Of a stretch of 35,313 nucleotides of DNA, positions 4,965-35,313 are shown one piece after another. The notes beneath the pieces were generated by a model, which worked only from the letters and a program-made list of their open reading frames with translations, searched no databases and was not told the origin of the DNA. Made by a program: the position numbers and the translations under genes. Every line of letters begins with the position of its first letter. The stretch's first letter is position 1. The DNA is from a virus. The stretch lies in the IMG/VR virus record IMGVR_UViG_3300025084_000004; one strand, 5' to 3'.

Positions 4965-6770
4965 CTAACCTCTGTAATTTCTGTTCATACAAACGGCACC
5001 GGCCCGGGCAACTTCATCGTAGCCTGTCTCTGCTTTTTGTATAAGCTCATCAGCAGATTCAATATCGTCCAGTAAGTCCTGCCGTATTGTGCCACGCATT
5101 GTATCTATGTCCAACTCAAGCAACCTGTTCTCTTCTGCAACCCGGGAAAGCTCTAGCTCTTCTATGTCGCCGCCTGCCGCGTCCTGTTCAGCTAGCTTCG
5201 GCTTCATGTCTGCATCTTCGCCAAGAAGATAGTCTTTAGTTCTACCTTCCTGCATCAAGGCTTCTGACTCTTCCAAGGTAATCGACCCGCCATCGTCTAC
5301 TGGCAAAGCGTCCACTTCTTCCATGTCGCCATACGGGTCCATTGTGTTCGCATCAATCTTGATTAAGTTTTCTTCTATTTCACGGAGGGCACCATCAAAG
5401 TCCTCGTTTGTCATCCCTTTGGGGTCGATGCCGTATTTTTCTGCTAAAGTGCGTAGCTCTTGGGCTTTTTCAAATGCGACTAATGCGCCCTCGTCACCCG
5501 CTCTTAGCTTTGGCGAACCACCTTCGTACTCGTCTGCAACAGCATCTATAAGGTCGTTAATACCCAAAGTGTCCGGGGCATCTGGAACCGCTTCTGGAAA
5601 AAACCCCTCTTCCCTTGCTGATGTAAGCGCTTGCTCAACGGTCAAGCCGCCTTTCTTGTATATGTTCCCTCCAAAGAAAGGCACCCGCTTTTTAAGGTCA
5701 TCTGCCCCGGCGCTATTCGGGTCTATTTTATTTCCAGACTTCCGAAGAAATGATAGCAACCCTTTGGGCATAGTTGCTTTGAGTACAGACGGGATAGCGT
5801 TGCCTTTGCGCTTATACTTCGCATCTATAGGCACACCGGTTTCAAGGTCGTACAAGCGACGCGGCTGGTCAACTATCTTCTGTGTTAGTATCTGACCAGT
5901 TTCAGGGTCAACCGTTCTTTCGACGGTAGAGGCAAGCTCGCTTTCACGGGCCGCTATTCTTTCGTTAGCCCTCTGTATTATCTCAATGTCTGCTTGCCTT
6001 TCGGCTTGAGCGTGTAACTCACCGGCCCTAATCGGCTGGCCACTAAGAGCTTGTCCCGTTGCGACAGCTAACGCCTCTCTTTTAGATTTTGATTTTTCTA
6101 TAGTGTCGGATATTCTACCAAACCCAGCATGAAGCCCACCACCCAGAACAGTGCCAAAGGTCACGTTCATAAAGCTGTCCATCAAGTTATAGTCGGTATC
6201 CTGCTCTAAGGTTGCTTGCCCAAGAATAAGTGGCTCTATAAGGGTTGCCTGTGCCGCTCCATCAATAGCCCCGGCGACAAACCTGCCTCCATTCTTGCCG
6301 TACTTCTGCATCATCAGTGCTGCTCGAGCAATACTTACATTCGGAAAGAAAACACCGGCAGCCACGTTTAGCGGGTCAAGCATACTCCCAGCAAGCCCAA
6401 CACCAAACTGTGCAGCCATCAAACCCATGCCACCTCTCGAGCGGCTTAACGTAAGGTTTATCTCTTCTCGCCGGTCCTTGCTTTCAGCTAACAGCTCCGC
6501 AAGTCCCTCAGTAATACCGTCGTCATTGACCTCTATACCTTCGCGGAAGAACTCGCTCTCTTGGTATTCCTGCTTGGTAAGTAACTGTCCCCGGCGACCT
6601 TTGCCGGTCTGTTGCTCGAAGAAACGCCCGGCTGCACTCAAGGGATTATAGTAAAGCGTGTCCTCTAGCGTGGCTCCGAGAACATCCATAGTGCCAACCT
6701 TGGAGTTTTTAAAATACTCGTCCCTCGCAGTCGCATCAAAACTTTGTTCTGGGATATAGTAATCAACCAC
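4965..6770 (-). CDS. Internal virion / ejection protein (601 aa, acidic C-terminal half)
   Basis: GTG start at 6770 overlaps the upstream stop (TAGTG). The call rests on position in the internal-protein block. Confidence 0.55.
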   Translation of the reverse strand: MVDYYIPEQSFDATARDEYFKNSKVGTMDVLGATLEDTLYYNPLSAAGRFFEQQTGKGRRGQLLTKQEYQESEFFREGIEVNDDGITEGLAELLAESKDRREEINLTLSRSRGGMGLMAAQFGVGLAGSMLDPLNVAAGVFFPNVSIARAALMMQKYGKNGGRFVAGAIDGAAQATLIEPLILGQATLEQDTDYNLMDSFMNVTFGTVLGGGLHAGFGRISDTIEKSKSKREALAVATGQALSGQPIRAGELHAQAERQADIEIIQRANERIAARESELASTVERTVDPETGQILTQKIVDQPRRLYDLETGVPIDAKYKRKGNAIPSVLKATMPKGLLSFLRKSGNKIDPNSAGADDLKKRVPFFGGNIYKKGGLTVEQALTSAREEGFFPEAVPDAPDTLGINDLIDAVADEYEGGSPKLRAGDEGALVAFEKAQELRTLAEKYGIDPKGMTNEDFDGALREIEENLIKIDANTMDPYGDMEEVDALPVDDGGSITLEESEALMQEGRTKDYLLGEDADMKPKLAEQDAAGGDIEELELSRVAEENRLLELDIDTMRGTIRQDLLDDIESADELIQKAETGYDEVARAGAVCMNRNYRG

Positions 6771-9358
6771 TAGAATATTTCCTTGCGCTCAATATCTTTC
6801 GCCGCTTCAAAGCGCTCCTTACGCTCTGTACCGAACCAGAAAGATTCGTCCCTAAGTTCGCCTGCCTCAGATGCCATCGAGAATACTTCCTCAAACTTAA
6901 CCATTACAAAAGCATCTTTAGCAGAAGAAAACGGAGCTTCAGGGTCAGACTTTCTTTGAACCATATTACCTTCTTTATCTACGAGATAAACACCGCTATT
7001 GTCTGTGTTTGTTACCCAGTAACCTTCCTGCGATATTTCGTTTGCGTACACTTGTGCTGAGACAAGGTTGCCTGCTTCTGGCGGCTCAATTATGCTAGCA
7101 AGTTTTTCTGAATTTCTATTCAAAGACTTTTCTAGGATTGAGGCCATCTCATTCGCTCTGCCCTCGTACCCCTTCTTCATTCTAAATGTTTGACCGTTTA
7201 CCTCGCCAAATGAAAACCGGCTACCCACTACGTTGTCCACCGCCATCTTTACAGCGTCATCAACACTAAGGCTGTCATCCGCCATCTTGTAGTACATGGC
7301 AGTGTTTGCAACAATCTTGTTCATAGAGGCAACATGAAGCATGCGAGAGTCCGTAGCGGCACGGGACATAACCCCACCGATTTGCCCACCAACGATACTA
7401 GAACCATACTCTGTATTAGTAGCTGATACCGCAGCCGTAAACTCTCTTCTCTCTTTCGCGGTAAAGGCTTCATTGTAAGACTTTACAACTTCAGGATTGT
7501 TCGCCGCATCAAGAGCAAAGTTCTTAGCGTTCTGTGGAGAACCTGTAATAAGCTGGTCAGCAAGTGAAAGAACATCTTGCTTTGCAAGGTTACGCATGAC
7601 AACCTTCTTCTCGTCTTCAGTAAACTGAGCAAAAAGCTTGTTGGCAATCTCAGACTTTTCGTTGTAATCCTTTGCTCCGGCATATTCATTCTTGAAGTCA
7701 AGAACCTGCTTATTAGACAAAATACGAATATCCATAGACGCGATGCCCATGTTGGCTTGCTTCTGAATAAGCTGCCTAGTGCTTAACGTAGCCGTTTCGT
7801 CATTCTGTTCTTTTCTGTATTCACTGGTGATAAAAGCTGCTGGGTCAGAAGTTATTGCTTCAGAGCGAGCAGCCATCATTGCATCAAAGTTCTTTATAGT
7901 ATTTATAGCGTTCACTCGTTCTCGAGGTGACAAACTAGGGTCGTTCTTTGCATTTACAAGCTCCGCTCTTGCTGTGGCTATTGCGCCCGGGGGTGCGTAT
8001 TTCAAAGCAGAATACTCCGCGCCTGCCGCTTTAATGGAAACTAAGCTATCTTGAAATGCTTGTGCTCCTGCTTCATCACCTATTTCTGTGTATAGTTCAG
8101 AAGTGTCGGCTATTAACTTTTGGGTTGCCTCATCAGGTTGACCGTTACTGCGCTGTAGTATGTCCAAAATAGCTGTTGAGTTTGTAGATATCTCATTTTT
8201 TATTTTTGGTTCCCTAGTAGAAATTTCTGCTTGAAGCATCCGCTCTACAACATTTCTTGCAGGGAGCCCCATCGAGCCAAGCTCACCTTCGCCACGCTCG
8301 GTAGCTTCGCGTAATTCTTGTATATCGCTTAGTGTCATGTCGGGTATTTGCTTGGCAATGCTGTCTGTCATCACTCGTTCATTTTCACCAGACTGCACAT
8401 CTCTGGATGTGCGTAATGACGTAGCCAATGCCTTTAGTTTGCTGTCAGGAATATTGGCAGTGGAAATGGTCATTACCTCGCCGTTACGTTCTATAGTAAT
8501 GTTCTGCCCTTTTTGGGTTTGTTCTATAGCATCGTTAAACTCGTCATCACTTAAATCTGCCATAAACACTTCGCCAGAAATACGGTCAGACTCTTCACTA
8601 ATAAGTATATTGCGACGTTGCGTAATTGAAGTTTGGTATGCGAGCCTTTGGCTTGCATTTAAATCCATGCCTTTTACTTGCTCAGATATTTCATCAAAGT
8701 CTGACAGTGATGTTGCAGCACTAAGGGCCACAGAAACATTTTCTAGGCCAGCAGCTTTAGCCCACGAATTTATGCTGTAGTTGGAGCTAAGACCCCTCTG
8801 TTGCATTTGATTGATTATGTCGTTTGCCCGTGACTGTAACACGGCTTGCATTTCTGGGTCAGCCGTAGAGCTGTACTGAGTCTTTAGCGTCTCCAGCTCT
8901 GCGTTTCGGGCTTGGCTTGTTAGCGTCAAGTCATTCCTAAACGCAACCTTCTTAGCGTCTACTGCCTTGGTCAGCATGGTGCGGGATATGTTCTGTTTGA
9001 TAGCCGCCTTCTGGGAGCTCGTTAAATTCATGCCATCTACTTTATTAAGTAAAGGCTTCTCTACTGTGTCGCGCAAACCTGCTGCCGCTGCCTCAGTATT
9101 CGTTTCCTGTAGCCCTAAGTTATATGCTTCAGCTTCCTCAAAGGCTTGTGCTGTCATTTCGCTGGTGAGTCGGTCCGTAGTATTCTTTTTTTGCTCTTGC
9201 CCAAACTGAAAAGCAATCTGCCCAGCAGTTTCAGCAAGGCCCATCATGCCGCGACCAGCCGCAGTAAATGCGTTCATATCGGGTCTACGAGATAGCTGGC
9301 CTGCTTCTAACTGGACTGTAGTACCAAGGCCTTTTCCATATAACGGTATTTTGGGCAT
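6770..9358 (-). CDS. Internal virion / ejection protein (862 aa)
   Basis: ATG at 9358. Largest ORF in the genome, long helical-looking sequence. The call rests on position. Confidence 0.6.
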   Translation of the reverse strand: MPKIPLYGKGLGTTVQLEAGQLSRRPDMNAFTAAGRGMMGLAETAGQIAFQFGQEQKKNTTDRLTSEMTAQAFEEAEAYNLGLQETNTEAAAAGLRDTVEKPLLNKVDGMNLTSSQKAAIKQNISRTMLTKAVDAKKVAFRNDLTLTSQARNAELETLKTQYSSTADPEMQAVLQSRANDIINQMQQRGLSSNYSINSWAKAAGLENVSVALSAATSLSDFDEISEQVKGMDLNASQRLAYQTSITQRRNILISEESDRISGEVFMADLSDDEFNDAIEQTQKGQNITIERNGEVMTISTANIPDSKLKALATSLRTSRDVQSGENERVMTDSIAKQIPDMTLSDIQELREATERGEGELGSMGLPARNVVERMLQAEISTREPKIKNEISTNSTAILDILQRSNGQPDEATQKLIADTSELYTEIGDEAGAQAFQDSLVSIKAAGAEYSALKYAPPGAIATARAELVNAKNDPSLSPRERVNAINTIKNFDAMMAARSEAITSDPAAFITSEYRKEQNDETATLSTRQLIQKQANMGIASMDIRILSNKQVLDFKNEYAGAKDYNEKSEIANKLFAQFTEDEKKVVMRNLAKQDVLSLADQLITGSPQNAKNFALDAANNPEVVKSYNEAFTAKERREFTAAVSATNTEYGSSIVGGQIGGVMSRAATDSRMLHVASMNKIVANTAMYYKMADDSLSVDDAVKMAVDNVVGSRFSFGEVNGQTFRMKKGYEGRANEMASILEKSLNRNSEKLASIIEPPEAGNLVSAQVYANEISQEGYWVTNTDNSGVYLVDKEGNMVQRKSDPEAPFSSAKDAFVMVKFEEVFSMASEAGELRDESFWFGTERKERFEAAKDIERKEIF

Positions 9359-15612: not shown

Positions 15613-15810
15613 TTACTCCTGCATCATGTTGTAAATGTGAAGGATAACCATACGCTTACCCTCCTCGAAAGCTGTGGCATTAGCATCGCCTGCCACATAA
15701 CTTGAAGTTCGCCAATTAGAGCGAGCCTCCAAATCCTTTAGCACTATTACCCCACTGTCACTAGTGAAGGCCTGCTTATACATTTCGCGTAGCTTATCTA
15801 CTTCGTTCAT
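15613..15810 (-). CDS. Hypothetical protein (65 aa)
   Basis: Coupled to the portal stop by a TAATG overlap. Confidence 0.45.
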   Translation of the reverse strand: MNEVDKLREMYKQAFTSDSGVIVLKDLEARSNWRTSSYVAGDANATAFEEGKRMVILHIYNMMQE

Positions 15811-17399
15811 TACTCGCCTAACATCCTTACTGCTTGTGCGCCTTGCGCTATATTTGCAACGTCTTCAGTTGTCTGTTGACGCTCTGCCATCTCCTGTTCC
15901 TGCGCTGCCCTCTGTTGCCTTGCCTCGTCCACTTCTCTTTGTGAGCGAAGAGTTGTCTTTGGAACACCGAGAGATTCAGTAATATGACGAACAAGACCAT
16001 CAGGGTCTATATGGTCGCCAACAGGGAATGATTGAGCAAGCGGAAGAAGAACCTCAAGGGCTTTGATTGTGCCATTAAGTGAAGTAGACTTCTGCGCTCT
16101 GGCAAGAGGTGATACATATTCAATATCAATATCTCTGCCCTGCAAGCTTTCCGGCGGGATTGATAGCATCTCTTGACGCAGCATAAGCCCAAACACTCTG
16201 TCAATTAACGGACGAAGCATCTCATTCATCAATCTTCCTAGAACAGGGCCAATCACCCTCATGCGCTCTTCCTGCCTTTGGATAACTTCCGTAGCAGTCA
16301 TATTAGGAGCGCCGCCAGATAGTAACTGGTCTACATAGAACGTAGAGCGGATTGCTTCTCTCCGTTGTTCTTCCATGCTTAGACCGATTGGAATGTTAGC
16401 ACCTGCCTGCAATGGTGTGATTGTATCTCTTGTACCTGCTCTATAAAAGTTAAGGCCACCGGGCTGTGTCCGTACCGGCATAATAAAACCGTCATCAGGA
16501 ACCAATAAGGGTGGGTCTATTTGTTTCTGAGCTGCCTGAATAATTGTCTTAGACATTAGGTTAAGCATTTTAACATCAGGCAACGCAGACATAGCAGGGC
16601 TTCTGCCCATCACTTCGCCTGTTGCTTTTAAGAAGCGCGGAACAATGTATGGGAGTTCTTCAAACCCAGACTCTGACAGTAGCATGCCTGACTCAACGTC
16701 AATGTAAAATGACGCATACGGCATGTTCTTGTTGTCACGCTTATTCGGGTCACGGTTAATACGCGGAAGAACAGCATGCAGGATTTCTATTTCTTCATCC
16801 GGCTTGTCTTCAAACTTCTTGCGAATGTAATCGCTTACGTTGTCAATTCCGAAACGCTGAATGACCTGCCTAACCGGGGACTTGTACTTTCTAAAGACAG
16901 TATCAACAATGCCAAACTGGTTTTCTTGGACGTAAAACTCAGAGATGTGCCGTGTACTGAAGCGAAGATTACCATCATCCATTTCAATAAACATACAGCC
17001 AGTACCGAACACAACCAAGTCAACGTACATTTCATGCACTTCAGTCTCAAAGTTAGACTGGTTAAACGCCTGTATCATTCTATTGCTGGAGTCTTCTAGC
17101 CATTCCTGAACGTCGTCATCACGAGAAATGTCTGCGTCTTTCATGTTCAGGTGGAACCAAGGCGTTGAGCCGCTGGTTAGCATGCCGTGCAAAGAAGCTG
17201 ATAACAGGTCTACCGCTTGTAAAGCAGTCCCATCGTAAATAAACTCCATACGCTTTTCGCCGCGAGAACGCTTACGAACAATATCCGCCTTACGGGGAAG
17301 CATATAATCCGCAAGTTCTTGATAATGGGTGTCCCAGTTATCTCTGCGTCCCTTAATATAATCGAAGCGAGATATAAGCGATTTGGTGAAGTTACTCAT
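15810..17399 (-). CDS. Portal (head-to-tail connector, T7 gp8-like, 529 aa)
   Basis: Size, position, and an N-terminus RFDYIKGRRDNWDTHYQELADYMLPRK...FIYDGTA typical of T7-type portals. Confidence 0.85.
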   Translation of the reverse strand: MSNFTKSLISRFDYIKGRRDNWDTHYQELADYMLPRKADIVRKRSRGEKRMEFIYDGTALQAVDLLSASLHGMLTSGSTPWFHLNMKDADISRDDDVQEWLEDSSNRMIQAFNQSNFETEVHEMYVDLVVFGTGCMFIEMDDGNLRFSTRHISEFYVQENQFGIVDTVFRKYKSPVRQVIQRFGIDNVSDYIRKKFEDKPDEEIEILHAVLPRINRDPNKRDNKNMPYASFYIDVESGMLLSESGFEELPYIVPRFLKATGEVMGRSPAMSALPDVKMLNLMSKTIIQAAQKQIDPPLLVPDDGFIMPVRTQPGGLNFYRAGTRDTITPLQAGANIPIGLSMEEQRREAIRSTFYVDQLLSGGAPNMTATEVIQRQEERMRVIGPVLGRLMNEMLRPLIDRVFGLMLRQEMLSIPPESLQGRDIDIEYVSPLARAQKSTSLNGTIKALEVLLPLAQSFPVGDHIDPDGLVRHITESLGVPKTTLRSQREVDEARQQRAAQEQEMAERQQTTEDVANIAQGAQAVRMLGE

Positions 17400-17401
17400 G
17401 T

Positions 17402-17611
17402 TTACCCCAATAATGTCGGTGTGCCGGTTGTTACGCCAGAATCTCCTAGCGCACCTGCCACGATTGTAGAACCTGAACCGCGCTTACGCCGAGACTTGGC
17501 AGTTGCCTCCTCAGATAAAGCAGCGGCTCTTTCCATATCAACAGGGTCTGCGGCAGGTGGAGCTGGCGGAGCCGGTGGAGGCATTGGAATCTTCGGGCGA
17601 AAAACACTCAT
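17402..17611 (-). CDS. Pro-rich small protein with a basic RKRGSGSTIVAG...TLLG tail (69 aa)
   Basis: ATG at 17611 with a TAATG overlap. Contains PMPPPAPPAPPAADP. The C-terminal motif is shared with the preceding 204-aa protein. Confidence 0.5.
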   Translation of the reverse strand: MSVFRPKIPMPPPAPPAPPAADPVDMERAAALSEEATAKSRRKRGSGSTIVAGALGDSGVTTGTPTLLG

Positions 17612-18225
17612 TAACTTACTCCTTTACCAGACCCGCCTCTATAAAGAGAACCGTAGCCTTCTAACAACGTACCGCCTTGTCCCGCTCTTTTACCGCGAGT
17701 TCTTTTACGGCCCCTAGTCATAATAGTTTCTTCTTCAGCAGCCGCTGTCGCCGCAACCTCTTCTGGTGTTTTTTGTTGTTGCCCTTCAAAAGGGGCAGCG
17801 TTCTCGTCGTCAGGTATAGAGCGCGGGTCTATTTGCCCAAACACTGTAGTACCCACACCTTTTGGGTCGCCTTCTGGCCTTCCAGTGTACCTTCCAGATT
17901 TATCAACAGCGCCCATCAAAGTACCAGACTTTGAGAAAACAGCCTTGCCGCCACCCTTCAGCACTTTCTCAATGTTGTTTAAATTCATTTTAGAGATAGC
18001 TCCACCAACAACACCAGCCGTTGTCGGGATGCTTACACTGCCTACTTTTATGCTACCGTCTGATGCAGCATCGCGTCTTTCGCTTATTTGCCTATAAGCA
18101 TCAGCGGTACTAAGGCCGCGCTCAATTCTAGCTTGATTTTCTCTAGCTCTTTTTTGAGCTGCTTCTTTTGGTGCAGCGAACCCGTCATTCGCATCACCGC
18201 CACCGCCGCCGCCACCGCCGCCCAT
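17611..18225 (-). CDS. Gly-rich protein (204 aa) with N-terminal MGGGGGGGGGDANDG and a basic RGRKRTRGKRAGQGGTLLEG tail
   Basis: ATG at 18225 with AAGGAG upstream. No family recognised. Confidence 0.55.
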   Translation of the reverse strand: MGGGGGGGGGDANDGFAAPKEAAQKRARENQARIERGLSTADAYRQISERRDAASDGSIKVGSVSIPTTAGVVGGAISKMNLNNIEKVLKGGGKAVFSKSGTLMGAVDKSGRYTGRPEGDPKGVGTTVFGQIDPRSIPDDENAAPFEGQQQKTPEEVAATAAAEEETIMTRGRKRTRGKRAGQGGTLLEGYGSLYRGGSGKGVS

Positions 18226-18226
18226 G

Positions 18227-18643
18227 TCAGACTCCTTTTAACTTATGCCAACCACGCTTATGTTTGGTTGTTCTTAACCACTGGGCGTTATCATATCCCA
18301 TGTCAATAAACTTGTCTTTAAGATACCTGAAACCACTAATAATGTCACGTTTGCCCCCTAGACATATGAAATCTATAATCCAGGGGGTGTTGCCTATGCC
18401 ATAGAAGCCGTCAGGCGGGAACCTTCCAGTCTCTAAATATTCCTCAACATGCCCTTCATCAGGAAAGGCATATGTCGCAAACATAGAAGGCAAGCCATCT
18501 TTAAAGTCGCAAACAAAAGTCTCGTTCTCAACAGGAGGAACAATAAGAAGCTCGTAGTCCCAGTCAGTCCAATACTTATGGTACGGACTTCTTTTCAACA
18601 AGTATGTTGCTACCATGTAGCCTTTAGCACTATTCATCGTCAT
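18227..18643 (-). CDS. HlyC/ApxC-family (RTX toxin-activating) lysine acyltransferase homologue (138 aa)
   Basis: By-eye alignment to E. coli HlyC gives three matching blocks. RSPYHKYW matches SSPLHRNW. TPWIIDFICLGG matches RKWFIDWIAPFG. FRYLKDKF matches YKYMRKKF. His22 and Asp91 fall at the positions of the reported His/Asp catalytic dyad. The size is also similar. Confidence 0.65.
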   Translation of the reverse strand: MTMNSAKGYMVATYLLKRSPYHKYWTDWDYELLIVPPVENETFVCDFKDGLPSMFATYAFPDEGHVEEYLETGRFPPDGFYGIGNTPWIIDFICLGGKRDIISGFRYLKDKFIDMGYDNAQWLRTTKHKRGWHKLKGV

Positions 18644-19926
18644 AGCGCGAAGGGGTTGTACGAATTTTCTGCAACCGACTGCGGAGCTCTGACTCCAGCT
18701 TCTCTATTTTGCAGTCCAACCGCGAGGTACCTAAACGCATCAGCCGCGTGGCTAGTAAAGTCGTGTCTAGGGTGATTTCTAAAAATTTGTCTTTTGTCAT
18801 CCCAATCCTGCCTGTATTGTTTTAAACATTCCAACCCAACAGCGCACTTGTCATCATCAAAGTAACACTTGGGCAACATCATTCGTGCCGCATTAATGCC
18901 ATCCGCAATCTTCATTTTTGGAATAACACGGAATCGAATACCTAAATTGTACGCTGTTTCTAATCGGCTTTTACCGCTACCCAGCTCGCGCACTTCAATA
19001 TCATGCGGCGCAAGGTGGTCGCCATAATGGTATTCCTTTTGCCGTAATACCTCGGCGTAGTGGTCGAGCCCAACTCCAGAGCTCTCATAATAATCAATGA
19101 CATTAACTGCTCCTCCACGAAATATCTGGGCAAACCAAATAGCTGTGCTGTCGTTCATGCCCAAGTCCCACGCAGTATGCACTGGAAGCGAAGGGTCATA
19201 TGGTACTCTAGTTATCTTTCCAGCATCTTCAGCATCCGCAATCAACTTCGCGTAGTATGCGCCGATAATAGCGGCAGTAAAGGAACACTCAAATTCCTGT
19301 TGATACTGTTCTTCCGTCATGGAAGCGCGAGCAGCGTCCAGCTCTTCTTGCTTTACAATCTCTGTTTCGCTCGCCTTACAGACCCTATAATACCAATCTT
19401 CGGAACCCTCGCCCAGTTCACGCTTAGCGTTTTGCATCATATCATAAAAATGATTATGGCCTGCCGGGGTGCCCAGAAATGTAGCCGAGCCCTGTCTGTC
19501 AGACAGCGCCGGGCGCACAACCTCGCCCCATACCCGAGGATTTTGCATGCCATATTCGTCAAAGAAACAATCATCTAAATAAATACCACGCAGCGCATCG
19601 GGGTTTTCGGCAGACAATAAAGTTATTCTTCCGCCATTAGGAAAGTCGGCTCGCAGCTCAGTCTCGTTAAATGTCGTACCCGGTATCACTCCGGCGTAAT
19701 ACTTCACATAGTCCCAAGCAATACGTTTTGCCTGCGTAAAGGTAGGAGCAATCAAAGCAACGCGAGGACGAGGTAGCGGATTGGTTAGCACCCGCTTTAT
19801 CATATGATTGACAGCCCAGACTGTCTTTCCAAAGCGTCTGTGCATCACCAGCACATTCCAGCGCTTCAGCTCTTTGTGCATGTCAGCCTGTATCGGGCGA
19901 GGCTTGTACGGGATTTTAACTTCCAT
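18640..19926 (-). CDS. terL: Terminase large subunit (428 aa)
   Basis: Walker A-like HRRFGKT, Walker B-like IYLDDCFFDE, and the nuclease-domain motif TAWDLGMNDSTAIW. It follows TerS. Confidence 0.9.
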   Translation of the reverse strand: MEVKIPYKPRPIQADMHKELKRWNVLVMHRRFGKTVWAVNHMIKRVLTNPLPRPRVALIAPTFTQAKRIAWDYVKYYAGVIPGTTFNETELRADFPNGGRITLLSAENPDALRGIYLDDCFFDEYGMQNPRVWGEVVRPALSDRQGSATFLGTPAGHNHFYDMMQNAKRELGEGSEDWYYRVCKASETEIVKQEELDAARASMTEEQYQQEFECSFTAAIIGAYYAKLIADAEDAGKITRVPYDPSLPVHTAWDLGMNDSTAIWFAQIFRGGAVNVIDYYESSGVGLDHYAEVLRQKEYHYGDHLAPHDIEVRELGSGKSRLETAYNLGIRFRVIPKMKIADGINAARMMLPKCYFDDDKCAVGLECLKQYRQDWDDKRQIFRNHPRHDFTSHAADAFRYLAVGLQNREAGVRAPQSVAENSYNPFAL

Positions 19927-20306
19927 CAGTCAGTTTCCCACAATATCTTCACAGTACCATCGCCTATCTCTACCCCAGCTCTATTCTTAGAATCACCGAA
20001 CCGCTCCGGCAATATCTTGCTGGCCTTCCACCGGACATGGTGGGCATAGTCACGCAGCACCCCCGTATCGTAATCCTTCCTTCGGTGAAGAGCATCGTCA
20101 AACACTTGGTCTAGCTCCTCCAGAGCCTTCTCAGCGCTGTACTGCTGTGCCTGCTTTACCGCTGCATCAAACTCAGGGTCGTTCTTCATGCGCTTGTAAA
20201 AGGCCGTGCGTGAGATGCCAATGCCCTCGCAAACATCGACGATGGTATGCCCATCTGAGATACCGGCAAGTATTAGGTCAGTCTTCGGCTTTGTGAGTTT
20301 GGTCAT
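19926..20306 (-). CDS. terS: Terminase small subunit (126 aa, N-terminal HTH)
   Basis: First gene of the late operon, coupled to TerL by ATGA. The HTH-like segment is IVDVCEGIGISRTAFYKRMKNDPEF. Confidence 0.7.
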   Translation of the reverse strand: MTKLTKPKTDLILAGISDGHTIVDVCEGIGISRTAFYKRMKNDPEFDAAVKQAQQYSAEKALEELDQVFDDALHRRKDYDTGVLRDYAHHVRWKASKILPERFGDSKNRAGVEIGDGTVKILWETD

Positions 20307-24250: not shown

Positions 24251-24559
24251 TTAAACCTTTCCTGCAAACATATCTAAGAAATCACCGAGGTCTACAACAG
24301 CCAGCGGCTTCTTCCTATCAGCACCTACAACAAGAATATCTGCACCCTCTAAATGCTGGTAAAGAAACTTAAACCCGTCGGCGCGTTTCTTCGCTTCAAC
24401 AACCCAAGTTTCTCTGCCCTTCTTTATATGCACATCACCCTTAAATCCAGGAGCAGAGCCAGACAACGGCACCCGGTGCGCTTCTAAATCACGGAGCCGG
24501 GCAAGCTCGACAATCTCACGCTCAAACCTGCTGCCTTTTTCTTTTTGCGGATTACTCAT
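24251..24559 (-). CDS. PD-(D/E)xK nuclease, Hjc-like Holliday-junction resolvase candidate (102 aa)
   Basis: I preferred the ATG at 24559 because it forms an ATGA overlap with the upstream stop. Motifs are KGSRFEREIV...SGS...GDVHI...WVVEAKKR, giving an E / D / E-x-K arrangement. Confidence 0.5.
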   Translation of the reverse strand: MSNPQKEKGSRFEREIVELARLRDLEAHRVPLSGSAPGFKGDVHIKKGRETWVVEAKKRADGFKFLYQHLEGADILVVGADRKKPLAVVDLGDFLDMFAGKV

Positions 24560-25380
24560 CCAGTACACTCCCCGTCATCTGCTTGGCAAAAATAACCCTG
24601 CTCATCAAAAATCCAATCTTGTTGCTTATTTACAAAATCTACAAACTCGTTTAGGTCGCGTCCCTTTCTGAACGTAGAGCCTACGTTACTTTCCATTTCC
24701 ATCCACCACTTCGCTCTTTCTGGGTGCATCCTTGCCATAGCCGCAAGTGTAGCCTCGCTTTTCAAAAAACAAAAATCGCAGTTTCCTTTTGCCGTTGAGC
24801 CAGAAAAATTATCAAGTTTTAAATCAAACAAACTATTAGCCCAAAATTCATTGACATCAATTTTAGAAACTCCTGCCTTCAACAGCGGGTACCAATAAGA
24901 CCATCTATCCTTGCTTTCTGTTTTAGCACGGTGCTCCTCATCAGCGCGGATACCCACGCAGGCCGACCATTTTTTCCAGCCAAGCTCTTTTGTGAGGTAC
25001 CTTTTCATAGGAAGTATTTTAAGCTCAGTTGTGCAAAATCTAGTAACTACATTCGGAAGATACTTTTTTTGTTTTATCAATACTTCAAACGGCTCACCGT
25101 CTTGGGAAGCAGAATTTTCTCCAACCACTTTATACCCCGCCTTGCCATCTGGCCTGTCATATTCAAGCCAAACGATAGAAACACCCCACTGAATAGAACA
25201 GTCATGCACAAAGTCAAGCGTCTCAGGCATTTCTCTACCAGTATTAGCAAACGTCACAACGGCTCTATCAGGTAAGCCATTGTTGGCTTCGAGTATTTCA
25301 TGCAGCATATAGGCTGAAGTTCTGCCGCCGCTGAAGCTGATTTGCACATTACCTTCAGGTAAGGTGTACGGATTAGTCAT
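24556..25380 (-). CDS. PAPS-reductase-family PP-loop ATP-pyrophosphatase-like protein (274 aa)
   Basis: The PP-loop is ISFSGGRTSAYML. Cys motifs are GNCDFCFLKS and a C-terminal CQADDGECTG. GGGGGA RBS. Confidence 0.7.
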   Translation of the reverse strand: MTNPYTLPEGNVQISFSGGRTSAYMLHEILEANNGLPDRAVVTFANTGREMPETLDFVHDCSIQWGVSIVWLEYDRPDGKAGYKVVGENSASQDGEPFEVLIKQKKYLPNVVTRFCTTELKILPMKRYLTKELGWKKWSACVGIRADEEHRAKTESKDRWSYWYPLLKAGVSKIDVNEFWANSLFDLKLDNFSGSTAKGNCDFCFLKSEATLAAMARMHPERAKWWMEMESNVGSTFRKGRDLNEFVDFVNKQQDWIFDEQGYFCQADDGECTG

Positions 25381-26133: not shown

Positions 26134-26952
26134 TCATAATTCCATTCCCTTCATAAGGTGCACAATAACATCAACGGTCCAACCGTTCCCCAGCATTTTG
26201 TAGCGTTGTGTGTTAGATACATGGTTGGTGTAATTTTCTGGAACCGTCTGTAATCGTTCACATTCCAAAGGCGTTAGCTTACGCCATGACACATCAGATG
26301 ATAGCCCATCCTTACTGAATACTAGCTGTCGCCTATGCTTCTCAAAGTAAGACTTGAGGTTGCCACCCTTGAAATAATTGGCATCAATACAGTGAGCCTT
26401 GTCTCTGTCTACAGCACCATCCTCTAGCACATCCTTTAGTAGGATACCCTTATCATCAGGTAAGCCATCCATAGGAATGTTAGTCCAATAGTACCGCTGA
26501 CGGTTCTGTGCTGACACAAGGCGACTGTTGATGAATACAGGCTCTACACCTAGTGCATCAGTGATAACGTCCAAAGAGCCCTGCTTCATCTTTACATTCT
26601 CTAGCAAGAAGTACTTGGGCTTTAGCTTGTGTAACACCTTGACGTAATCCCAGAACAACTTGCTGCGTGGGTCGTCAAAATTCAACTGCTTGCCAGCAAA
26701 TGAGAAGCCCTGACAAGGACTGCCCCCAATGAGCAGGTCAATCTTACCATGTGGGGCAATAGCATTTAGCCATAGCTTGAAGTCATTGCCCGTCAAGTCA
26801 CCTAGATGCACAGTGTCTGGGTAGTTAGCCTGAGACACCTTGATAGCGTACTTGTCTATCTCACTTGCATAATACCGTGAAACCGGAATACCGAGTTTGT
26901 CCAAAGCGATTCGCCCACAGGACATGCCATCAAATAAAGATAATACATTCAT
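26134..26952 (-). CDS. DNA (cytosine-5)-methyltransferase (272 aa)
   Basis: Motif I is LSLFDGMSCG, motif IV is GGSPCQGFS, motif VI is LLENV and motif X is MLGNGWTV. The start is set at ATG 26952 immediately before motif I; the ORF-track TTG extension adds no methyltransferase sequence. Confidence 0.9.
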   Translation of the reverse strand: MNVLSLFDGMSCGRIALDKLGIPVSRYYASEIDKYAIKVSQANYPDTVHLGDLTGNDFKLWLNAIAPHGKIDLLIGGSPCQGFSFAGKQLNFDDPRSKLFWDYVKVLHKLKPKYFLLENVKMKQGSLDVITDALGVEPVFINSRLVSAQNRQRYYWTNIPMDGLPDDKGILLKDVLEDGAVDRDKAHCIDANYFKGGNLKSYFEKHRRQLVFSKDGLSSDVSWRKLTPLECERLQTVPENYTNHVSNTQRYKMLGNGWTVDVIVHLMKGMEL

Positions 26953-27003
26953 AATAGTATTTTTAACCCTCTCGCGCTTCTTACAAAAACACAATATCAG
27001 GTG

Positions 27004-27032
27004 TTGACAGATTGGTAAATGGTTAGTAATTA
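27004..27032 (+). promoter_or_regulatory. Sigma70-like promoter candidate for the recombination operon
   Basis: TTGACA (27004-09), then 17 nt, then TAATTA (27027-32), in the divergent intergenic region. Confidence 0.45.
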
Positions 27033-27084
27033 GAATAGGCAAGGATATTTCAAAGCTCGTTTTTGTCTACAAACATGCGGGTTA

Positions 27085-33178: not shown

Positions 33179-33997
33179 CTATCCTATCAAATACGCTTGC
33201 AAATAAGTGTGAGCATTCCCCATAAACAAGGTAGTGGCATGAGTGTTTATGAACGTTATTTTATCGTTAGCATTTAGATTTAATATAATCTGCGAAAATA
33301 CTGTAGAAATCATTCCTGCATTCATGTGACCCATTCCTACAAGGGTACCGTTTACATGAATAACTAAACGACCATGACCACTATTGGTATTATTGTAAAT
33401 TTGACCGCTAACAGAATACAAACCATCTACAGGTACAGTGATTTCACCGTTGGTATTGTCATAGCTCATACCACCTTGTGCAAAACCATTTGTAGAAGTT
33501 TCGTAGTTAGCAGGAGGCAATACTGTATTTGCGCCTACTGATACGTTATTGTGGTTATTACCCATGCAAAGGATTGCTGGTTTAGATGGTTGGAAGATAC
33601 GCCCACTATCATCAATAGTCATAGCCGCAGTGCCGTTGCTTGCTCTAATACTGCCAACATCGAGGTTACCGCTGATGGCTATGTTGGTATCTAGCTTGGC
33701 TGATGTAACACTGCCATCCGTAGGCGTAACCACATTGCCTACATTGCCGAACACTCGCACAAAGTCGATGACATCTGATGACGATAGCGTGGCACCAACA
33801 GTCAGCGTGTTACCTGATAGGCTCATGGTAGAGCCAGCCTGTATCACGCCGTTGATGCTGACCAGTAGGTTGTTCACAGTCTCAGGGTAATATGCGGCAC
33901 CGCTTCTGGTTAATGTGTATGTGTCCGTGGCAGAGGCAGTCAGAGCATCTAGCTCAACAAACTCGCCAATGGTAGGTTGTTTACCTATATATGGCAT
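33179..33997 (-). CDS. Tail fibre with a shared N-terminal anchor and a C1q/TNF-like C-terminal domain (272 aa)
   Basis: AAGGAGA RBS. The N-terminus MPYIGKQP...PTDGSVTSAKLDTNI is homologous to that of the junction-spanning fibre. The C-terminal pattern is discussed in the findings. Confidence 0.75.
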   Translation of the reverse strand: MPYIGKQPTIGEFVELDALTASATDTYTLTRSGAAYYPETVNNLLVSINGVIQAGSTMSLSGNTLTVGATLSSSDVIDFVRVFGNVGNVVTPTDGSVTSAKLDTNIAISGNLDVGSIRASNGTAAMTIDDSGRIFQPSKPAILCMGNNHNNVSVGANTVLPPANYETSTNGFAQGGMSYDNTNGEITVPVDGLYSVSGQIYNNTNSGHGRLVIHVNGTLVGMGHMNAGMISTVFSQIILNLNANDKITFINTHATTLFMGNAHTYLQAYLIG

Positions 33998-34872: not shown

Positions 34873-35313
34873 TATGCTATCCTCACTACTGATAAAGATG
34901 TGACCGTGCCATCAAAGTTAGTAAAACTGCTTTGCGTTGAAATATTGTGAGCAAACCTATAAGTGCTTGCCGCATTGCCTACAGGATTACAGCTAGCTTT
35001 AAGTCTTATCTTTGTGCCAGATGAAGTTGCTTTGAATATTGTGCTTCTTTTGTGGTGATGACTTACCTCAAGCGCATCTGCGGCGTTTAAGGACCTAGTA
35101 AACTCACTAATCCGAGAATTAATAGAACTAAAATTGTCTGTGCTAAATTCTGCGGCAGAAGTTGAAGTGATGAGTTCGGCAGTACCTGCTGTGTCTGAAG
35201 TGATTGCCAAAGAATATTCAACCCAATACACTCCGTCTGAACTATCTAATTCGTAGCTGTTGGTAGAAGCGTCAAAGTTTGATTTAGTGTCATATTTAAC
35301 AGTGCCGTTAGTG
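34872..35313 (-). CDS. C-terminal part of the junction-spanning tail fibre (continues from 528..1)
   Basis: The frame is open to the window end. Nt 35202-35313 duplicate nt 1-112. The C-terminus ...DGVYWVEYSLAI...TSLSVVRIA is beta-rich. Confidence 0.8.
   Translation of the reverse strand, partial: TNGTVKYDTKSNFDASTNSYELDSSDGVYWVEYSLAITSDTAGTAELITSTSAAEFSTDNFSSINSRISEFTRSLNAADALEVSHHHKRSTIFKATSSGTKIRLKASCNPVGNAASTYRFAHNISTQSSFTNFDGTVTSLSVVRIA
35202..35313. repeat. Terminal overlap copy (identical to 1-112)
   Basis: Direct comparison of the two window ends. Confidence 0.95.

Follow-up and report, generated by a model that had tools for sequence, protein, structure and literature searches.

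The stretch of DNA analysed here, IMG/VR virus record IMGVR_UViG_3300025084_000004 (35,313 nucleotides; hereafter the window), carries three open reading frames (ORFs) on its minus strand between the genes for the terminase large subunit (TerL) and a T7-type portal, as the initial annotation of the sequence had stated. The first (18227–18643) encodes a protein of 138 amino acids (aa) of the toxin-activating lysine acyltransferase (TAAT) family, which includes HlyC, ApxC and CdiC; the assignment is based on Pfam PF02794, the predicted fold and the catalytic dyad. The second (17611–18225) encodes a variable Gly-rich protein of 204 aa (p204), marked by its position and co-occurrence as the cassette partner of the TAAT, and the third (17402–17611) a small Pro-rich protein of 69 aa (p69). 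Close relatives carry both the TAAT gene and a p204-type gene or neither of them; the two therefore form a two-gene accessory cassette. We give about an even chance to the interpretation that in this cassette the TAAT acylates p204, its cognate substrate, for engagement of the host outer membrane. The initial annotation had proposed that the phage lipidates one of its own proteins or a host protein; that hypothesis is here narrowed to the TAAT/p204 cassette, and it is strengthened by co-occurrence across phage lineages and by the apparent displacement of the TAAT by a GNAT-fold enzyme in an equivalent position.

The genes of the region are closely packed. The TerL gene (18640–19926, minus strand; PF03237, phrog_2) and the TAAT gene overlap by ATGA, the ATG of p204 lies one base past the TAAT stop codon and is preceded by an AAGGAG ribosome-binding site, the p204 and p69 genes overlap by TAATG, and the end of p69 is separated by 2 nt from the ATG of the portal (head-tail connector) gene, which forms the downstream end of the cassette region (15810–17399, minus strand; PF12236, E 1e-152). 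These junction sequences bear out the translational coupling of the 138-aa gene to TerL and its location in the virion morphogenesis operon, both noted earlier.

Family assignment of the 138-aa protein

The 138-aa protein matched the Pfam profile PF02794 (HlyC) with 31.9 bits (E 1.4e-7; profile positions 6–97 of 127), above the gathering cut-off of 25 bits, and many of its homologues carry a precomputed assignment to the same profile. The phmmer search against the PDB gave ApxC (4whn) as the only match (E 5e-4). In the ApxC alignment His22 (codon 18578–18580, minus strand; equivalent to ApxC His24 and CdiC His37) falls on the histidine of SPLH, and Asp91 (codon 18371–18373, minus strand; equivalent to CdiC Asp107) on the aspartate of FIDW. 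The AlphaFold2 model (pLDDT 82.5, pTM 0.77) found three ApxC chains of 4whn as its first three matches in Foldseek (E 9e-8 to 8e-7, TMq 0.72–0.73), while generic GNATs came next with E values of about 1e-2, five orders of magnitude behind. Thus the blocks that the initial annotation had aligned by eye with HlyC were recovered in the ApxC alignment, the two residues that it had proposed as the catalytic dyad took the expected positions, and the structural comparison that it had suggested returned ApxC as the best match (TM 0.73).

The active-site signature was conserved among 155 distinct phage TAATs: Ser19 was present in 154, His22 in 154, Trp88 in 152 and Asp91 in all 155, and the sole sequence without His22 is incomplete at a contig end. 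Both dyad residues were invariant in alignment A1, and in the more divergent 27-sequence alignment A2 (mean column identity 25%) the His and Asp columns were the only invariant ones. Catalysis by TAATs depends on this His/Asp dyad and on acyl-acyl carrier protein (acyl-ACP) as the donor (PMC8510554). The TAAT is under purifying selection (dN/dS = 0.078 against the 93% identical homologue in locus L002). The 138-aa protein was thus confirmed as a genuine TAAT with intact catalytic residues, a family assignment that is sound on profile, fold and dyad.

In a profile search of 1.8 billion representative proteins only 77 clusters were related to the phage TAAT, and no relatives of this TAAT clade were found in 185,579 bacterial and archaeal species genomes. 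Judging from these distributions, the clade appears to be a compact family branch carried by viruses. In the related representative clusters P0034, P0040, P0042, P0043, P0051, P0064 and P0106 Tyr replaces the catalytic His. NCBIfam gave no match for the 138-aa, 204-aa or 69-aa protein, and PADLOC gave no match either; no defence or host-takeover signature was found.

The earlier statement that no RTX toxin is encoded in the window also held. A six-frame scan of the window found no RTX repeat array, but only a single isolated match to the nonapeptide GGxGxDxUx, located within the scaffold protein, and no RTX or type I secretion Pfam matches were obtained among the window proteins scanned.

Co-occurrence of the acyltransferase with the downstream gene

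The cassette is not a rare one: three scans of IMG/VR, partly overlapping in their results, confirmed 112, 68 and 140 stretches that encode a TAAT. These belong to uncultured viral contigs of several phage lineages. For the TAAT-ascertained survey 80 loci were fetched, of which about 60 reach from the TAAT to the portal. All of these spanning loci had the order TerS, TerL, TAAT, one protein of 106–456 aa, a protein of about 70 aa, and portal. In the TAAT-ascertained loci TerL and portal were 75–87% identical to those of the window, the TAAT only 43–56%, and the variable protein was often unalignable.

As the divergent 27-sequence alignment varied too much to serve as the seed of a locus search, it was divided into TAAT subfamilies, which led to further loci. 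These differed in their gene order: lineage 2 has TAAT, gene X and TerL; lineage 3 has TerL, portal, TAAT, gene X, two small genes, a scaffold-like gene and the major capsid protein gene; and in the cultured HMO-2011-type Roseobacter phage CRP-235 the TAAT gp30 is followed by gp29 and then by lysozyme. In all contexts gene X starts between −25 and +11 nt relative to the TAAT stop codon. The constant element across at least four phage lineages was this gene X with a Gly-rich N-terminal element, while the flanking genes varied. Proteins of the p69 type were absent from the other TAAT contexts examined.

The portal-ascertained survey included 60 close relatives (portal at least 78% identical) holding both the 3' end of TerL and the start of the portal gene. 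The TAAT was present in 51 of them. In the remaining nine the gap between TerL and portal measured 228–285 nt and contained a p69 homologue only, and neither a TAAT nor the p204-type C-terminal motif was found anywhere in these loci. Gain and loss thus affect the TAAT and the p204-type gene jointly and leave p69 in place, so the two downstream proteins are not equivalent candidates. This co-presence and co-absence is the strongest evidence for p204, rather than p69, as the partner of the TAAT, and on these grounds p204 is probably its substrate. The co-occurrence of both small proteins with the acyltransferase, which the initial annotation had suggested surveying, was therefore upheld for the 204-aa type only, the 69-aa type being present either way.

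Neither a megablast search of the region nor, even at E = 10, a tblastn search with the window TAAT recovered any cultured phage among 50,697 phage records. Cultured relatives were instead reached via the portal and via more distant TAATs. The nearest by portal were HTVC010P-type pelagiphages (57–59% identical). The more distant TAATs led to CRP-235, a 52.7-kb phage whose gp30 (MZ892989; in GenBank "putative toxin-activating lysine-acyltransferase") matched PF02794 with 57.5 bits and was about 26–28% identical to its TAAT queries from lineages 2 and 3. The gene for gp29 begins 1 nt downstream of gp30, and its product of 491 aa, although unrelated to p204, also starts with MGGGGGD. CRP-235 thus provides a cultured carrier of the pair of TAAT and Gly-rich protein.

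Two HMO-2011-type relatives of CRP-235, CRP-738 and CRP-3, have no TAAT. Their orthologues of CRP-235 gp29 have a leader followed by ...IVF(K)GGGG..., and directly upstream, in the slot that the TAAT occupies in CRP-235, lies a gene for a protein of about 150 aa (phrog_7642; CRP-738 gp29, L233:1823-2278; CRP-3 gp28, L234:1336-1800). This protein showed no similarity to TAATs by hhalign and had no Pfam or PDB sequence match, and the depositor label "putative acyltransferase" of CRP-738 gp29 was confirmed by none of these three comparisons. Its GNAT fold, predicted with confidence, was seen only via structure prediction and Foldseek: the AlphaFold model (pLDDT 88.6) had 230 PDB matches at E ≤ 1e-3, and among the 50 of these listed almost all were GNAT-fold acetyltransferases, including NatD, Naa50 and GCN5. 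On the predicted fold, TAAT and GNAT at the same position next to orthologous Gly-rich proteins are best read as a non-orthologous displacement. The occurrence of two acyltransferase families in the same slot speaks for acylation of the downstream protein as the selected function.

The partner p204 begins with MGGGGGGGGGDANDG, giving the N-terminus MGGGGGGGGGD. Its Met-Gly(9) element (18196–18225, minus strand) is a candidate recognition or acceptor element on account of its enrichment. Essentially all TAAT-adjacent proteins of the window lineage start with MG[GSA], compared with an MG start in 23 of 1077 other ORFs. At least five Gly in residues 2–12 were present in 68 of 112 TAAT-linked proteins but in only 11 of 51 counterparts from TAAT-less HTVC010P-type phages (Fisher p = 4e-6, not phylogeny-corrected), for which 80 loci (L235–L314) served as the control set. 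A Met-Gly or poly-Gly start as a feature specific to TAAT carriers was rejected, since it occurs also in this control set; it is enriched, not exclusive. Lineage 2 and 3 partners have a Gly/Asp/Ser-rich stretch behind a short conserved leader, with the motifs ...LL[FY]CFGGGD... or ...ENRIC[FY]x[SG]D-GSGGGG....

The middle region of p204-type proteins is hypervariable, with TPEV repeats in many members, and the C-terminal consensus reads TPEV-repeats...RRT-Rx[K/R]R-xGQAGTxxEGYGxL. In p204 itself the C-terminal basic motif (RGRKRTRGKRAGQGGTLLEGYG; 17650–17718, minus strand) includes K174 and K179. Of the p204-type proteins about 70% have Lys at the central position of this motif, and about 99% have Lys or Arg there. 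No Pfam or PHROG assignment and no match to phrog_831 were obtained for p204, and p204 and p69 both lack a hydrophobic segment.

Also some further features of the partner proteins were observed. In most p204-type proteins tandem TPEV/TPEI repeats (TPEVTPEVTPEV) precede the C-terminal basic motif, as in the C-terminal third of the lineage 1 proteins of loci L006, L007, L021 and L064; the window p204 has them only in degenerate form (TPEEVAATAAAEEE). In lineage 2b (L096–L103) the TAAT-adjacent protein has a conserved internal ...WFLVRMGCFNGD..., and translation from the internal Met would give an MGC N-terminus. An MGC N-terminus resembles the eukaryotic dual acylation motif, in which Gly is myristoylated and Cys palmitoylated.

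The third protein, p69, was assigned to phrog_831 (E 7e-7), in which also HTVC010P p73 (E 2e-21) and p80 (E 3e-19) were placed, and its alignment showed both phrog_831 motifs, the Pro-rich N-terminus and the C-terminal KGRxSTIxxG...LLG. Its basic cluster and GSTIVAG motif (KSRRKRGSGSTIVAGAL; 17447–17497, minus strand) include K39 and K43. The descriptions of the two small proteins in the initial annotation proved accurate: p204 has several G-K dipeptides (three, at residues 93, 178 and 200), p69 is rich in Pro, and the two have a C-terminal basic motif in common, seen here as a basic cluster followed by Gly and T-[IL]-[VIL].

In TAAT-less HTVC010P-type pelagiphages two paralogous phrog_831 proteins lie between TerL and portal (in HTVC010P itself L082:2216-2437 and L082:2640-2882; the other loci are those of the control set), mostly with an MG start and a KGRxSTILTG...LLG end. 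Often a tiny basic protein (MFEKIKKIFKKK...) is encoded between these two paralogues.

Acceptor residue, proposed mechanism and alternatives

The initial annotation, by pointing to the G-K dipeptides of p204, had implied the canonical Gly-Lys acceptor of the family. This part was not sustained: the basic position in the p204 motif, where it is not Lys, is mostly Arg, and lysine-free partners exist in other loci. By its sequence the position appears to behave as a charge motif, comparable to K84/K85 of T7 gp7.3. Outside the window lineage the median lysine content of the partners was 0.6–1.2%, against about 3.9% in other ORFs of the same loci, while their arginine content was normal. Five complete lineage-3 partners of 329–393 aa had no Lys at all (L117, L124, L133:6348-7529, L136 and L150), and at most two Lys were counted in 22 of 50. 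The five lysine-free proteins contain 16–22 Arg, are encoded directly downstream of the TAAT, have the N-terminal element ENRIC[FY] in common and end in a conserved C-terminal domain (...NPYYxYSGxGNxxxPYGYAxGTLVDLLQTRGM...). In L133 the TAAT gene lies at 5965–6366 and the lysine-free partner has 393 aa. The few lysines found elsewhere were scattered. An internal lysine therefore cannot be the universal acceptor on the partner proteins, and the acceptor chemistry may be non-canonical. The conserved Cys of the lineage 2 and 3 motif was considered as an acceptor and rejected, as it is replaced by Arg in 3 of 27 sequences.

The N-terminal amine is the obvious alternative, complicated by the leaders of lineages 2 and 3. 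We tentatively suggest, while considering it rather doubtful, that phage TAATs acylate the N-terminal region of the partner instead of an internal lysine, for example the α-amine of the N-terminal Gly of p204. For an enzyme of the TAAT family N-terminal acylation is put forward as a hypothesis only. It would explain the lysine-free partners, in which the N-terminus is the only primary amine. If true, it would be a virus-encoded, acyl-ACP-dependent counterpart of eukaryotic N-myristoylation, producing a lipid-tipped protein that abundant marine podophages use against the host outer membrane.

In the proposed mechanism we infer the substrate role of p204, acyl-ACP as the donor, the modified residue, the presence of p204 in the virion or among the ejected proteins, and the membrane-directed purpose. 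The accessory cassette between TerL and p69/portal would consist of the enzyme gene and the gene of its cognate substrate p204, mirroring hlyC-hlyA and cdiC-cdiA, where the enzyme gene stands next to the substrate gene. Late in infection host acyl-ACP would supply the enzyme with an acyl chain; no ACP gene was found among the window proteins scanned, and the TAAT, if acyl-ACP-dependent, would need host ACP. By means of the His22/Asp91 dyad the chain would then be passed to an amine of p204, most likely in or beside its Gly-rich N-terminus, candidate acceptors being the α-amine of Gly2 after Met removal or a lysine of the C-terminal basic motif. The protein p204 itself lacks a hydrophobic segment. 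Once acylated, it would become part of the particle or be released from it, and its acyl chain would engage the host outer membrane as infection begins. By analogy with CdiC, the particle or the proteins that leave it first would in this way gain a hold on the outer membrane. Gain and loss of the cassette among close relatives suggests an accessory for host range or infection efficiency, with which its dispensability fits.

Several observations weigh against this interpretation. The cassette is missing from nine close relatives; it is therefore an accessory that does not belong to the core ejection machinery. Neither p204-type nor p69-type proteins have a conserved lysine column. In TAAT-less HTVC010P-type phages, too, MG starts and some N-termini rich in Gly occur, and in lineages 2 and 3 a leader of 11–25 residues places the Gly-rich element away from the extreme N-terminus. 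p204 belongs to no recognised family, its location in the virion is an inference only, and its acylation is a prediction from sequence and structure. Links to small T7 proteins encoded upstream of the portal, gp7.3 and gp6.7, were weak: hhalign of short p204-type forms against gp7.3 gave a probability of 60%, over a low-complexity basic stretch, and homology of p69 to gp6.7 was not supported (hhalign probability 0.4%, not significant). Finally, the GNAT protein of CRP-738 and CRP-3 resembles N-terminal acetyltransferases, and, going by its modelled fold, the relevant chemistry could be short-chain acylation and not lipidation.

This last point leads to an alternative that we consider improbable, namely that acetylation or another short-chain acylation of the p204 N-terminus or lysines modifies charge or stability, and so regulates assembly, DNA binding or proteolytic stability, instead of anchoring p204 in a membrane. 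It would agree with the best structural matches of the GNAT protein in the roseophage slot (NatD, Naa50 and GCN5), with the basic nature of p204-type proteins in the window lineage, whose T7 analogue gp7.3 contacts DNA via lysines, and with the possible importance of N-terminal blocking. The displacement by a GNAT does not, however, fix the chain length, as the GNAT fold includes fatty-acyl transferases. The fold match of the TAAT is specific to ApxC and not to the acetyl-CoA GNATs, and the characterised TAATs use long- or medium-chain acyl-ACP, with fatty acyl chains going to the RTX protoxins and 3-hydroxydecanoate being the chain of CdiC (PMC8510554).

An alternative of comparably low probability is that p204 is not the substrate, or not the sole one, and that the TAAT acylates another phage protein such as p69 or a host envelope protein. 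In the p69 variant the acceptor would be a Lys of the RKRKG-GSTIVAG motif, with p204 as a co-factor or merely co-inherited. The motif of basic cluster, Gly and T-[IL]-[VIL]-x-G is common to both proteins, and lysine-free lineage-3 partners cannot be substrates if the acceptor must be lysine. The basic cluster of p69 also contained Lys in 29 of the 30 clusters extractable from TAAT carriers, but was Arg-only (RRRRGRG, RRGRRGRG or RRTRRGRG) in nine of nine TAAT-less close relatives (L318, L319, L321–L323, L331, L357, L360 and L361), a contrast that is not phylogeny-corrected and corresponds to about four to five independent sequences. The GC content was similar in both sets (about 0.47), so composition does not explain the contrast. 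More distant TAAT-less HTVC010P-type phages do, however, have Lys-rich clusters, though in AT-rich genomes. The position of p69 is unchanged when the TAAT is lost, while p204 is lost with it, and the only neighbour conserved over four lineages is the immediately downstream gene, p69-type proteins being absent in the remaining contexts examined. The Lys/Arg contrast, though it comes from few independent lineages, makes p69 a possible second substrate. For a host target, the failure to find any defence or host-takeover signature speaks against it.

That the TAAT is enzymatically dead and serves the Gly-rich protein in a non-catalytic role, as chaperone or assembly factor, is very improbable: Tyr in place of the catalytic His occurs in some related clusters of the wider representative set, but in the phage loci the Ser/His/Asp/Trp signature is essentially invariant, with His and Asp the only invariant columns of the divergent alignment, which is the pattern expected of a retained active site. 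The idea of a lysogenic-conversion or moron gene activating a host RTX toxin has only the family name in its favour and is effectively refuted already by the context, as an RTX array is missing from the window, the gene is part of a late structural operon in which it is translationally coupled, no integrase was found among the window proteins scanned, the clade had no relative in the bacterial and archaeal species genomes, and the conserved partner is a phage protein.

Genome context and comparison with known systems

The window begins and ends with an exact direct repeat of 112 bases (1–112 and 35202–35313) and is the longest contig on record for the protein cluster of its TAAT; it therefore represents the complete genome, about 35.2 kb, of a podophage related to the HTVC010P-type pelagiphages. 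The contig was either circularly assembled or has T7-like direct terminal repeats. Its GC content is about 46%, and protein family scans indicated phage genome throughout. The T7-like morphogenesis operon, on the minus strand, extends between about 20.3 and 0.5 kb. It begins with TerS (19926–20306), TerL, the three ORFs and the portal, continues with a Bbp19-like protein, scaffold, major capsid protein and tail tube A and B, and ends with gp14/15/16-like internal virion proteins and a fibre. In the internal virion protein block an 862-aa ORF (6770–9358) occupies the position of T7 gp15 and had no PHROG match at E ≤ 1e-3, though its neighbours are recognisable. Elsewhere on the minus strand the window encodes a C-5 cytosine DNA methylase (26134–27042; PF00145, E 8e-45), a PAPS-reductase-domain protein (24556–25380; E 9e-8) and a protein (33179–33997) with a BclA_C/C1q-like C-terminal domain below threshold (25.6 bits against a cut-off of 38).

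Phage TAATs have so far appeared as annotations only, in database labels and one figure legend. In addition to the GenBank label of CRP-235 gp30, UniProt A0A6J7WXX7 gives an automatic TAAT name to an uncultured phage protein, and the viral structure library BFVD holds four close structural matches. The legend, with the label "HlyC", is in a pelagiphage preprint (bioRxiv 10.1101/2019.12.14.876532), which does not discuss the TAAT gene or its neighbour; the CRP-235 paper never mentions gp30. The initial annotation knew of no described phage system of this kind, and full-text literature searches likewise found no phage protein-lipidation system. The present results suggest that some abundant ocean phages modify a protein of their own with an acyl group, probably a lipid. 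If real, this would be a new chemical tool for short-tailed phages in engaging or breaching the Gram-negative envelope, and would add a third, viral class to RTX toxins and CdiA as substrates of TAATs.

A eukaryotic parallel in form is found among the non-enveloped viruses with N-myristoylated penetration proteins, such as picornavirus VP4, reovirus mu1N and polyomavirus VP2. These are small Met-Gly virion proteins that are released at entry and engage the membrane with their acyl chain, and N-myristoyltransferase is itself a GNAT-fold enzyme. They differ from the phage case in relying on a host enzyme and acyl-CoA, whereas the enzyme here is virus-encoded and belongs to a lysine-acylating, acyl-ACP-dependent family.

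The T7 proteins gp7.3 and gp6.7 resemble p204 and p69 in being small and encoded just upstream of the portal. In T7 the C-termini of six gp7.3 molecules lie at the junction of adaptor and nozzle, K84/K85 of gp7.3 contact DNA in the tail channel, and gp7.3 leaves first, after which twelve gp6.7 and six gp14 build the outer-membrane channel (PMC11784390). Like p204, gp7.3 is basic; it starts with MGKK and ends in a basic-Gly motif, the tail-channel anchor, to which the p204 C-terminus is similar. By eye also the gp6.7 N-terminus MCFSPK resembles MS-F-L-T-P-K of p69. No PHROG cross-matches were found, gp7.3 and gp6.7 belonging to phrog_1320 and phrog_1391, as against phrog_831 or no assignment. 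The likeness would thus be one of position and composition, an analogy and not a membership. T7 moreover has no acyltransferase, and gp7.3 is required for infectivity, whereas some close relatives do without the p204-type gene.

With the toxin systems of HlyC, CyaC and ApxC (PF02794; 4whn) the phage enzyme has in common the profile, the fold and the Ser-x-x-His ... Trp-x-x-Asp signature, and as in hlyCA the enzyme gene lies immediately upstream of the gene of the, here presumed, substrate. It is shorter, however (138 aa against 169–183 residues in the 4whn chains), and in contrast to HlyC systems the cassette belongs to the virion morphogenesis operon of a lytic-type phage, has no RTX protein or type I secretion genes, and has a small, Gly-rich, low-complexity partner without a conserved Gly-Lys acceptor.

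A non-RTX substrate of the family is known from class IV contact-dependent inhibition. CdiC is a TAAT that was co-opted to lipidate the adjacently encoded CdiA in its unstructured receptor-binding domain, which anchors the protein on lipopolysaccharide, the acyl chain inserting beside lipid A (PMC8510554). The phage cassette differs from it in that CdiA is a large secreted bacterial effector with an experimentally shown acceptor, Lys1467 (PMC8510554), while the presumed substrate here is a phage protein, and some phage partners have no lysine at all. The likenesses are the adjacent gene for a non-RTX substrate, a largely unstructured region in that substrate, an acceptor lysine that is not invariant, and a lipid that would hold the protein on the lipopolysaccharide or outer membrane of the target (PMC8510554). 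By this analogy CdiC-CdiA would be the functionally nearest model for the TAAT/p204 cassette and its nearest mechanistic precedent.

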